From a virus (taxonomy: Duplodnaviria; Heunggongvirae; Uroviricota; Caudoviricetes): a DNA stretch of 60,889 nt. This document shows positions 53,322 to 60,077 of this stretch, piece by piece. The position numbers and the translations under genes were made by a program. Under the pieces are notes generated by a model. It was not told the origin of the DNA and made no database searches. It worked only from the letters and a program-made list of their open reading frames with translations. Position 1 is the first letter of the stretch; each line of letters starts with the position of its first letter. The DNA lies in the IMG/VR virus record IMGVR_UViG_3300028833_000055, positions 302,446-363,334 of that record, one strand, 5' to 3'.

Positions 53322-53393
53322 TGGGTCAGGAGGGATTCGAACCCTCGACTCCCGCCTTAAAGGGGCGGTACTCTACCACTGAGTTACTGACCC
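53322..53393 (-). tRNA. tRNA-Lys(TTT) with C33
   Basis: CCGCC-CC-TTT-AA-GGCGG. Confidence 0.8.
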
Positions 53394-53709
53394 GTAAATA
53401 GGTTTTAATTCAAGTTTTTTTTAGTTTTTGTTCTGACCGGTGCCTTCCAAAACTTGTGCAGTGGTGTTACTGCTTTCATAAGGGATAACCTATAAAACCG
53501 CTTTTCATAAAAATACACCGGTTCCGGCCTTTGTTTAAACATTTGACAAGCTAATCAATTTCCTATTTGGGACACCACCCCCAAGAAGAAGTATTTTAGA
53601 GCTCATATTATTACTTCCCGACAAGGAATTTTCACTTATGTTCCGTGGAAAGCCACTACCACGAGTCTGAATTTTATGTCTTAGCGACCACCGACATTTT
53701 ATGTGTTTG

Positions 53710-53784
53710 CTCCAGAAGAGGGATTCGAACCCCCATCTCCGAGATTTTTACTCTCGACGGCTTCAGCCATTTGCCCATTCTGAA
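53710..53784 (-). tRNA. atypical tRNA, anticodon AAA (Phe?)
   Basis: CGAGA-GT-AAA-AA-TCTCG; good T arm. Confidence 0.5.
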
Positions 53785-53809
53785 TGTTCACCAACCGGAG
53801 TTGGTGTGT

Positions 53810-53887
53810 GGGTGAATGGTGGGACTCGAACCCACGACCTCTGGTTCCACAGACCAGCGCTCTAAAACCGACTGAGCTACATACACC
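53810..53887 (-). tRNA. tRNA-His(GTG)
   Basis: CT-GTG-GA; encoded G-1 and C73. Confidence 0.9.
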
Positions 53888-54015
53888 ATAATATTTTACA
53901 GAACCAAGTCGCTATCTCGGAATGGATGTTTCTATACCTTGGGGACCACAGCTACTCACCTTCCGTCAGCCTTTCGGCTTACTCAAACAGCACCATTGTC
54001 TTTCGACTTCTGTAG

Positions 54016-54101
54016 TGGGAGAGGAGGGATTCGAACCCCCTGTGTATCTTACGTAACGGATTTACAGTCCGCCGCCACTCCACCATCGTAGCCGCTCTCC
54101 C
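54016..54101 (-). tRNA. tRNA-Tyr(GTA)
   Basis: CT-GTA-AA, long V arm. Confidence 0.85.
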
Positions 54102-54140
54102 GTTCAAACTTATTTTAACCATCCAGTATGTCAAAGAACC

Positions 54141-54170
54141 TTTTTTGCAAAGATACTATATTTTTTTCTT
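54141..54170 (-). promoter_or_regulatory. promoter within tRNA array
   Basis: TATCTTTG core 54148-54155. Confidence 0.65.
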
Positions 54171-54197
54171 TCTGCAAAGAAAAATTTAATTTTTTTG

Positions 54198-54270
54198 TGA
54201 CCTCGGTGGGACTCGAACCCACAACCTTCTGATTAAGAGTCAGAAGCTCTACCAGTTGAGCCACGAGGTC
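54198..54270 (-). tRNA. tRNA-Lys(CTT)
   Basis: CT-CTT-AA. Confidence 0.9.
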
Positions 54271-54387
54271 ATTGACTCATAACAAAAAATGGGGTGCTCT
54301 ACCACTATTAGCACCAATGTTTCATTTTAGTCACCCGCCAAATAGAAACTTCAATCTAAAAGATTGTGGAAATGCTTGCATTATAAG

Positions 54388-54515
54388 TGCAGACGACAGG
54401 ACTCGAACCTGTAACCCATATGGGAGCGGTTTGAACCCGAAAACTTGCTGTCCAATTCTTTATCAAGAATCTGTTGATATTGGACCGCCGTGTTTACCAA
54501 TTCCACCACATCTGC
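54388..54515 (-). tRNA. tRNA-Leu-type body with ACAGC-module insert (probable anticodon CAA)
   Basis: Leu D-arm GTGGAATTGGTAAACAC; insert GATTCTT-GATA-AAGAATT-GG-ACAGCAA; TTCAAA before 3' stem. Confidence 0.6.
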
Positions 54516-54527
54516 AATTTTCTCCGG

Positions 54528-54612
54528 TGTACCGATGGTAGGACTCGAACCTACACGGACTTTCGTCCACCTGTTCCTAAAACAGGCGTGTCTACCATTC
54601 CACCACACCGGC
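54528..54612 (-). tRNA. tRNA-Leu(TAG)
   Basis: TT-TAG-GA. Confidence 0.88.
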
Positions 54613-54617
54613 GTTTG

Positions 54618-54792
54618 TGGAGTTATACAGATTCGAACTTCGTCTTCCAAACATCCTCCAATGTTCCTTTGTCGTATGTGAGGTCTGACGAAAAGGTAAA
54701 AAGTTTTATAAAACCTCTGTTCCCGCTCCCGTAACAACTGTGGCCACAACTGTTACGGCCGGCTTCCAGCCCGTTTAAGCGACCTTAACCCC
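54618..54792 (-). ncRNA. Ala-acceptor (G3:U70) tRNA-like / mini tmRNA-like RNA
   Basis: GGGGTTA/TAACTCC-A acceptor, TTCGAAT loop, ~140-nt interior. Confidence 0.45.
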
Positions 54793-54801
54793 GTTTTTTT
54801 G

Positions 54802-54872
54802 AGCGGATGATGGGAATCGAACCCACACATCCAGCTTGGAAGGCTGGCATACTACCGTTGTACTACACCCGC
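54802..54872 (-). tRNA. tRNA-Gly(TCC)
   Basis: CT-TCC-AA. Confidence 0.9.
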
Positions 54873-54878
54873 ATATCG

Positions 54879-54963
54879 TTGTGAGGGAGGGATTCGAACC
54901 CCCGTACCCCTTTCGGAGAACAGATTTACAGTCTGTCGCCTTTAACCACTCGGCCACCTCACA
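54879..54963 (-). tRNA. tRNA-Tyr(GTA)
   Basis: CT-GTA-AA. Confidence 0.9.
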
Positions 54964-55072
54964 ATATAAAGGTCGGGGTTTCGTATCAATCTTACTCGAG
55001 TACTACGCCGATTGAGTGTTATCCCCTGGATAGACTTTTTCCAGTGTATACTTCCGGAGTCTATCTTTAATG

Positions 55073-55147
55073 TGGGATTCCAGGGAGTTGAACCCCAGCC
55101 TCTGGATTTTCAGTCCAGCGTACAATAACCACCTATACGAGAATCCC
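55073..55147 (-). tRNA. tRNA-Phe(GAA)
   Basis: CT-GAA-AA. Confidence 0.85.
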
Positions 55148-58175: not shown

Positions 58176-58248
58176 AGCCGGAGGAGGGAGTCGAACCCAC
58201 AACCTTCTGATTACAAATCAGATGCAACTACCATTGTGCTACTCCGGC
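58176..58248 (-). tRNA. tRNA-Thr(TGT)
   Basis: TT-TGT-AA. Confidence 0.9.
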
Positions 58249-58254
58249 ATTTTG

Positions 58255-58327
58255 CGGGGACAGTAGGATTCGAACCTACGACCTACTGGTTAACAGCCAG
58301 TTGCTCTACCTATTGAGCTATGTCCCC
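58255..58327 (-). tRNA. tRNA-Asn(GTT)
   Basis: CT-GTT-AA. Confidence 0.9.
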
Positions 58328-58569
58328 AAGAAATCGTTAGTCCGTAAGAACTAATATGTGGCAAAAGACCTGTTTTACTGGCGTCACAGAACTCCGTACT
58401 CCGTGTACGGTATGTTAATGTAATATATTTCAAGCCATCTTACCATTGCATGCCCACAGTAAGCACTCTCAAAAATTACTTCTATCTACTCAATATTCAA
58501 CTCTCCGGGTCATGACTCCAAATCCTTGTACATCTTTCAAATAAGTCAGAACTTACACCAATCTTTTAG

Positions 58570-58643
58570 CGGTGCGTATGGGACTCGAACCCATGACCCT
58601 CGGCGTGACAGGCCGATATTCTAACCAGCTGAACTAACGCACC
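58570..58643 (-). tRNA. tRNA-Asp(GTC)
   Basis: CT-GTC-AC. Confidence 0.9.
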
Positions 58644-58691
58644 AGACAAATATTTGTCATTATTTATGTTTTTTCAAAAAGGAAAAATTTA

Positions 58692-58758
58692 CAAGGTTCT
58701 TCGATACTTTTAGAAACCCAAATTCTACGTTGTCAAAAGATTTGCTGTTTGAACCTTT
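58692..58758 (-). ncRNA. ACAGCAA stem-loop small RNA (skipping-rope-like)
   Basis: AAGGTTC-AA-ACAGCAA...GAACCTTG. Confidence 0.6.
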
Positions 58759-58775
58759 AATGACTATTTTTCCTA

Positions 58776-58863
58776 TGGCGGAGAGTAAGGGACTCGAACC
58801 CCTGCCACAACGAGGTGGGCTTCAGATTAGCAATCTGACCAGTTACCACTCCTGCAACTCTCC
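58776..58863 (-). tRNA. tRNA-Ser(GCT)
   Basis: TT-GCT-AA, long V arm, CCA. Confidence 0.88.
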
Positions 58864-59003
58864 AAACTAACTCGGAACTATCCGGATTAGTACGCAATTT
58901 CGCATTAGTAAAACATTGTGGTCTTTTACACCACTCCATACCGGTATGGCTATAACCAAGCGGGCTTGCTAGTCACATACAATTCCGAGTTAAATCGGTT
59001 TTG

Positions 59004-59076
59004 TGAGCACAGCAGGATTCGAACCTGCAACTTACGGCTTAGAAGGCCGTTATTCTTCCAATTGAATTATGCGCCC
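59004..59076 (-). tRNA. tRNA-Arg(TCT)
   Basis: CT-TCT-AA. Confidence 0.88.
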
Positions 59077-59292
59077 ATAGATGTTATGGTTGCAACAAAA
59101 CCGTAACCAGTTTTCCATACTTGTTTTTCGGTAAGCGACTTTTCCGATGTACCTTCTCTTACAAGGGTGATGAATCTATTTAAGGTTCACCTTCCTTTTC
59201 CGTTCTGCAATCCTCTGTTTAAACCTAATTCTCATAGATGCCGTGTCACCACGGTGTGAGTTCACAACTAGTACGATTTCATAACATCTTTG

Positions 59293-59411
59293 CTGGGAGG
59301 ACAGGACTCGAACCTGCGACCACGGTCTTAAAAGGACTGAATAAATGTATCGCGTTTGATTCTTTTGCAAGAATCCCAAAATACGTGCTCTACCAACTGA
59401 GCTACCTCCCA
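59293..59411 (-). tRNA. tRNA-Lys(TTT) with 46-nt ACAGC-type insert at 28/29
   Basis: Removing 59338-59383 gives CGGTC-CTTTTAA-GACCG. Confidence 0.75.
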
Positions 59412-59427
59412 ATTTGATATATTCTTT

Positions 59428-59517
59428 TGGCGGAGGGGGAGGGATTCGAACCCCCGGACCCCGTTAGAGGTCAACGGTTTTCAAGACCGCCGCAATCAGC
59501 CACTCTGCCACCCCTCC
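59428..59517 (-). tRNA. tRNA-Ser(TGA)
   Basis: CT-TGA-AA, CCA. Confidence 0.9.
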
Positions 59518-59643
59518 AAATGAAAGATTGATTGAAATAACCCCGTTCAATCTTTCGAAAACGTGCCGACCTACGATTCGGATGCCGAGTTTGACTGATG
59601 TCAGGGACTAGCACATCTTCGTTCCCTTGTACTTCGGGCTAAT

Positions 59644-59721
59644 TGGTAGCGGAAGCCGGACTCGAACCGGCGTGGAACGGCTTATGAGACCGTGCTGGGA
59701 CCATCTCCAGTCTATTCCGCA
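59644..59721 (-). tRNA. tRNA-Met(CAT), initiator-like (1:72 mismatch)
   Basis: CT-CAT-AA, CCA. Confidence 0.75.
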
Positions 59722-59731
59722 ATATATTTTT

Positions 59732-59874
59732 GACATTACGACCGGACTCGAACCGGCAGTACCTATATGTTTGTGATATAGGGCAACTTTTACGTCCCAC
59801 TCCCAGGACTTCCATCTGGCTGCTCACAACAGCAGTTACAGGCGAGGGTTTACCAATTCCCCTTCACATAATGT
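59732..59874 (-). ncRNA. enlarged tRNA-like RNA with 8-bp acceptor and GTG-loop hairpin
   Basis: ACATTATG/CGTAATGT, D-loop AATTGGTAAA, T arm; GCTG-TTGTGAG-CAGC inside. Confidence 0.5.
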
Positions 59875-59880
59875 TCTTTT

Positions 59881-59953
59881 GTGATACGACACGACTCGAA
59901 CGTGCATCACCCTGCTTCCCGCTCGGGTGTCCTAACCGTTAGACGACGTATCT
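59881..59953 (-). tRNA. pseudo-tRNA (Glu-type body, aberrant anticodon arm)
   Basis: GTCTAACGGTTAGGAC D arm; anticodon arm mispaired. Confidence 0.45.
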
Positions 59954-60002
59954 GGCCTCCTGTTAGCTACTCAAAAGACCAATAAAAGTACTTTTAAACC
60001 AG

Positions 60003-60077
60003 CACTCCCGACGAGACTCGAACTCGTAATCTCCGCCGTGAAGGGGCGGTGTCCTAACCTATTAGACGACAGGAGCA
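60003..60077 (-). tRNA. tRNA-Glu(TTC) with C33
   Basis: CCGCC-CC-TTC-AC-GGCGG. Confidence 0.8.

Follow-up and report, generated by a model that had tools for sequence, protein, structure and literature searches.

Strain-variable cytidine at position 33 in the tRNA-Lys(UUU) and tRNA-Glu(UUC) genes of a giant gut-type phage

In some phages, the encoded tRNAs differ from those of the host near the sites at which tRNA-cleaving nucleases (tRNases) cut the anticodon loop, and such substitutions are proposed to evade these enzymes (van den Berg et al. 2023, PMC10264068). The present feature, cytidine in place of uridine at position 33 (C33 and U33) of a tRNA-Lys(UUU) gene and a tRNA-Glu(UUC) gene, belongs with these phage tRNAs. 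Both genes are located in a stretch of 60,889 nucleotides (hereafter the window), which forms the final 60.9 kb of the 363,334-bp virus record IMGVR_UViG_3300028833_000055 from a giant gut-type phage. However, there are differences: the earlier study is computational and concerns mainly mycobacteriophages, its accessible part singles out neither position 33 nor toggling between strains, and it explains the coliphage tRNA-Lys(UUU) by ligase repair instead. In the case of phage T5, substitutions within the tRNA-Lys(UUU) anticodon arm give resistance, here to AriB of the PARIS system, but these changes surround the AriB site at 40/41 and T5 retains U33 (PMC12409363). Phage tRNA-Lys also counters PrrC170 (Azam et al. 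2024, PMC11555353), but all 11 tested genes carry U33, and C33 is therefore not the known route. Working tRNAs with C33 exist in the initiator tRNAs of metazoans and plants (PMC8887486) and in bacterial tRNA-Val(GAC) and tRNA-fMet; those natural C33 tRNAs are lineage-wide and chromosomal, whereas C33 is polymorphic here and lies in the split-box tRNAs for Lys and Glu. The new element is the strain-level toggling at position 33, with sister strains differing by one base.

The array in the window contains 36 tRNAs called by ARAGORN together with insert-bearing ones, every one on the minus strand. The tRNA-Lys(UUU) gene (53321..53393, −) is intronless, does not encode CCA and has C33 at 53362; the tRNA-Glu(UUC) gene (60002..60076, −), the sole Glu(UUC) gene in the genome, has C33 at 60043. 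Both were called by ARAGORN and Rfam, with Rfam bit scores of 71.4 and 58, respectively. The anticodon loops read CC-UUU-AA in Lys and CC-UUC-AC in Glu, with C32-C33 in both, and are closed by perfect 5-bp stems that are identical to each other. The cloverleaf, the 7-nt anticodon loop and the conserved D and T elements are intact in both genes, and the folding energies of the cloverleaves equal those of the U33 alleles. All other normal 7-nt-loop tRNAs of the 363-kb genome have U33, including Lys(CUU), Glu(CUC) and Gln(UUG), and the remaining non-U33 calls are confined to degenerate elements at 59881 and 53214. This distribution, first proposed in a sequence-only reading of the window, is confirmed by ARAGORN, Rfam and the whole-genome check. 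The same reading correctly described the sole U33 copy of tRNA-Lys(UUU) in this genome as insert-bearing: this second gene (59293..59411, −) has a 46-nt insert in the 5′ strand of the anticodon stem, present in 6/6 strains covering it. GAA is the major Glu codon of the phage (5248 vs 2524). Both C33 genes, Lys and Glu, have the appearance of functional tRNAs that purifying selection maintains.

The C33 feature is real. An independent Joint Genome Institute (JGI) assembly, L290, carries the identical Glu C33 allele, so that sequencing error, named in the sequence-only reading as a possible refutation, does not explain it; the Lys C33 allele occurs in one assembly only and is unreplicated. Other samples yielded contigs of this strain; their identity to the window is 100% over approximately 13 kb of non-overlapping sequence, and they span neither C33 gene.

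Sister strains, 95–99% identical to each other, were recovered with a 2H phosphoesterase protein (PF13563; gene at 56831..57349, −, within the tRNA array) as the marker. The 73 nt of the intronless Lys gene are identical across five strains save position 33, which is C in the window and U in L268, L277, L290 and L291. In the Glu gene, position 33 is C in the window and L290 and U in the otherwise identical allele of L268 and L291, and a different U33 allele occupies L277, L292 and L296. C33 is thus present in 1/5 intronless Lys copies and in 2/7 assemblies for Glu, and is not conserved among relatives. Three tRNAs with U33 in the window carry C33 elsewhere in the strain comparison: tRNA-Val(UAC) (55542..55617, −) in L268, L277, L290 and L291, with G31-C39; tRNA-Ser(UGA) (59428..59517, −) in L277 and L292; and tRNA-Leu(GAG) (52844..52928, −) in L292. 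Because sister strains have U33 in Lys or Glu and C33 in other tRNAs, C33 is, on this comparison, a recurring strain-level variant rather than a fixed Lys/Glu-specific adaptation, and the specificity suggested by the sequence-only reading does not extend beyond this strain. The pairing of Lys(UUU) with Glu(UUC), a pattern noted post hoc, is absent from the sister strains.

The distribution among strains indicates that C33 is recent and unfixed and originated separately in the genes concerned. A single gene conversion of the arm between Lys and Glu is disfavoured, since the shared stem already exists in the U33 alleles and L290 combines Glu C33 with Lys U33. Position 33 is variable in 5/~40 orthologue groups, compared with 0/240 at positions 53–56, 58 and 61 (P=5e-5), and four of the five variable groups are U34 tRNAs (P=0.04, post hoc). 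Whole alleles also turn over in the array, those of Asp, Asn, Phe, Gly, Leu, Cys and Glu being swapped among strains. In a contig otherwise identical to the window (L274:374-445), an initiator-type tRNA-Met replaces the tRNA-Asn at 58254-58327.

Frequencies in phages were taken from a viral tRNA sample not selected on position 33; the pattern scans required particular T-arm motifs, and the removal of duplicate tRNAs was based on sequence rather than on phylogeny. A 7% bystander rate from C33-selected loci was discarded as biased, and the rate of the unselected sample was used. Among the matches listed, which form the basis of all viral counts given here, C33 occurs in 51/1644 viral tRNAs (3.1%) vs 8 with a purine at 33, and these non-U33 bases show a stronger skew towards C than do synonymous changes (P=0.024). 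By carrying C33, about 3% of phage tRNAs recurrently break the textbook rule, without experimental explanation. The proportion is 5/131 (3.8%) for Lys(UUU) and 8/126 (6.3%) for Glu(UUC), or 13/257 for the two together vs 38/1387 for other viral tRNAs (P=0.07). In an unrelated family of gut phages of approximately 60 kb (L004-L026), Glu(UUC) has C33 in 12/12 records, with other positions variable. Pro(UGG) has C33 in 6/12 records of this family.

The host of the phage is probably a member of Bacteroidota, as judged from the start regions of its genes, which are devoid of Shine-Dalgarno motifs (GGAG in 3%) and rich in A at −11 to −14, a combination that we take to point to this phylum. In 201 Bacteroidales genomes, no Lys or Glu C33 was found and 237 U33 matches are listed (mostly Lys, a few spurious), a significant difference from the viral Lys and Glu tRNAs (13/257 vs 0/237, P=2e-4); C33 was present in these genomes in Val and Ala only (11/201 genomes). 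The prokaryote matches listed place C33 predominantly in the tRNAs for Val(GAC), Met and Ala. The statement that U33 is nearly universal was therefore too strong, since in many bacteria the chromosomal tRNAs for Val(GAC) and fMet commonly have C33. From these surveys, C33 is compatible with function, and hosts appear to exclude it from Lys and Glu, which phages do not. As separate observations, tRNA-Val(GAC) is the commonest prokaryote C33 tRNA (43/95 among the matches listed, L150-L267), in many phyla, and C33 in Met is recurrent in Planctomycetota and Patescibacteria.

Tentatively, U33C may be understood as an escape allele under patchy host tRNase pressure, with both genes remaining working tRNAs, the preferred reading, to which we assign a probability of about 45%. 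Both C33 genes would encode working tRNAs, and the single-base allele would rise and fall among phage strains meeting hosts with differing tRNA-attacking defences, of which the responsible nuclease need not be PrrC or RloC. C33 would weaken decoding, and this cost would explain both its non-fixation and its absence from host copies. The C33 tRNAs differ from the host isoacceptors at or near a known cut site (0 C33 vs 237 U33 in Bacteroidales): cleavage by PrrC occurs 3′ of U33, as the sequence-only reading had stated, and RloC prefers tRNA-Glu (PMC2610378). LshCas13a prefers Lys(UUU), Glu(UUC), Gln(UUG) and Thr(UGU) (PMC11042736), and Cas13b6 excises U33 from tRNA-Val, a cleavage reduced by loop substitutions (PMC13692257). 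For Lys only, an indirect route would be available. A U33C tRNA is not modified to N6-threonylcarbamoyladenosine (t6A) by E. coli TsaBCDE, as shown on initiator tRNA (PMC8887486); C33 would thereby remove t6A37, and the cyclic form ct6A37, stated as a PrrC requirement (PMC12409363), would not be made. AAA_13, the domain of the PrrC/RloC family, is above cut-off in 21/201 Bacteroidales genomes, and this patchy presence would produce fluctuating selection. Furthermore, position 33 might act as a reversible one-base immune-escape switch, set tRNA by tRNA within a phage population according to the local host tRNases, either by removing a U read by the nuclease or by turning off host t6A37; this extension is considered less likely than not. 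If escape is true, position 33 would be a genomic record of the tRNases that a phage has met. The clade supplies natural pairs with an identical tRNA body and a single-base difference (Lys and Glu; nearly Ser, Leu and Val), which make the escape hypothesis and the decoding cost testable without engineered guesses.

A number of observations weigh against escape. Viral C33 has no wobble-U bias (3.05% with U, 3.5% with G and 3.15% with C), viral tRNAs of the t6A class are without C33 excess (19/637), and tRNA-Gln(UUG) (55904..55976, −), the third tRNA of the thio-U34 class and an internal control, keeps U33 throughout the strains. The variability at position 33 (5/40, 12.5%) is not above that of synonymous T/C sites (57/312; P=0.51, with low power). 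U33C is without effect on yeast gamma-toxin cleavage of the Glu stem-loop (PMC2275089), U33 is present in each of the 11 phage tRNA-Lys constructs assayed with PrrC170 (PMC11555353), and both AriB, at 40/41 and so far from position 33 (PMC12409363), and Schlafen proteins cleave in the stem. The literature search found no published test of U33C against PrrC or RloC, and no nuclease is assignable to this phage, because its own host is placed to phylum only. The nuclease-resistance interpretation of the sequence-only reading is thus partly supported: the functional appearance of the genes, the cut site of PrrC and the tRNA-Glu preference of RloC, the lack of C33 from Lys and Glu in Bacteroidales and the patchy PrrC/RloC family there agree with it, and neither the Lys/Glu specificity nor a concentration in wobble-uridine tRNAs is borne out.

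Several of these figures are equally what would be seen if U33C were a near-neutral, tolerated transition, with a pyrimidine at 33 sufficing in supplementary phage tRNAs and the Lys and Glu pair being coincidental, an explanation only slightly less probable than escape. The rate at 33 is indistinguishable from that of four-fold sites, 14% of which are variable among sister strains, and positions 57 and 59 are as variable as 33. A generic scan of viral contigs recovers C33 in at least 25 anticodons, with Met, Pro, Asn and Ile the most frequent, and the unselected sample has no wobble preference. At a per-tRNA phage background of 2.7%, two or more C33 genes among 38 have P=0.28, and the count in this array is therefore ordinary. 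The chromosomal C33 of Val(GAC) and fMet, and that in Val and Ala of 11/201 Bacteroidales genomes, are in line with tolerance as well. However, tolerance alone does not readily account for the absence of C33 from host Lys and Glu in the 201 Bacteroidales genomes, for the 12/12 Glu records in the unrelated phage family, or for the lack of any other change in the Lys and Glu genes among strains, and C33 should cost Lys its t6A37.

The remaining explanations are considered less probable. That C33 serves to evade selfish elements within the phage population itself is improbable. In L292 (13780-14718, +), an 865-nt group I intron (13813-14677), missed by Rfam, interrupts the same tRNA-Lys(UUU) gene directly 3′ of U34, and its P1 loop harbours an HNH gene of 236 aa; P1, P2, P3, P5, P7, P8 and P9 are all paired, a terminal G is present, and removal gives a perfect tRNA. 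Position 33 lies 2 nt from this insertion site, and U33 pairs with the intron guide sequence, so that C33 would mispair, break a pair of the P1 helix and could lower homing or splicing. A free-standing HNH endonuclease gene (60231..60679, −) adjoins Arg(CCU)/Glu(UUC), 150–250 bp from the Glu gene, and the U33 form of this Glu allele occurs in neither HNH-carrying strain, a comparison of tiny sample size. Against this, L290 has Glu C33 without the HNH gene, the intron-bearing Lys allele has a different anticodon stem, the endonuclease targets are putative, and C33 in Val, Ser and Leu is left unexplained. Early decay, or conversion into non-decoding decoys that titrate nucleases, is more doubtful still: several degenerate tRNA-like elements exist in the array and t6A37 loss could cripple AAA decoding, but neither gene is otherwise changed, the cloverleaf energy is that of the U33 alleles, and Glu(UUC) is single-copy with GAA as the major Glu codon. 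An assembly artefact, conceivable for Lys only, has a slight chance. Both C33 changes move a C-run/T-run boundary in the same local context, Lys C33 is in one assembly, and the two termini of the record share a 145-bp overlap that contains one mismatch; on the other side, four further sites with that C/T context are unchanged, Lys C33 occurs in other phages, and the L290 replicate and the identity of the same-strain contigs speak for the assembly. Editing of C33 back to U in the RNA is the least credible. C-to-U tRNA editing exists in other organisms, but a profile search of the phage genome found no cytidine deaminase (PF00383), nor the potentially compensating modification or splicing enzymes TsaD, TilS/TtcA or EndA, with a sub-threshold match only for MnmA, and we know of no bacterial C-to-U tRNA editing activity.

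In addition to the genes above, the array contains further unusual elements. Four minus-strand genes for tRNAs or tRNA-like elements (52614-52730, 54388-54515, 55779-55902 and 59293-59411) have a related short insert, and free-standing elements related to it lie near 58070, 58690 and 60790. The sole tRNA-Trp (53092-53208, −) has an insert beside the anticodon, and the genome search detected no splicing endonuclease of the EndA type. The element at 59881-59953 (−) has a Glu-like tRNA body with D and T arms kept and an anticodon arm that is degenerate and strain-variable, and the tRNA-like gene at 53214-53292 (−) has an atypical loop that is identical across the strains compared. The free-standing HNH gene is absent from L268, L277, L290, L291 and L292. 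At one site its copy in the window has six A, compared with seven in the intact 149-aa copy of L296; what looks like a slippery site may therefore reflect a simple frameshift mutation and not programmed recoding.

The phage has no cultured relative in the genome collection searched. It uses the standard code: table 11 fits and each of the three stop codons occurs, so recoding was rejected. Genes in a tRNA-repair context include an Rnl2-type RNA ligase (21308..22315, −), an RlaP-family RNA-repair nucleotidyltransferase (13394..15370, −) and a Thg1-family protein (39637..40461, −), and the genome also encodes RNA ligases and a CCA-adding enzyme. In the sister assemblies ERZ27257207 and ERZ27257203, the gene of the CCA-adding enzyme is split by a 371-aa DUF723 gene, probably a further intron or homing element. 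Next to the DNA ligase gene in the window lie three C5-cytosine methyltransferase genes in tandem (47118-49823, −).

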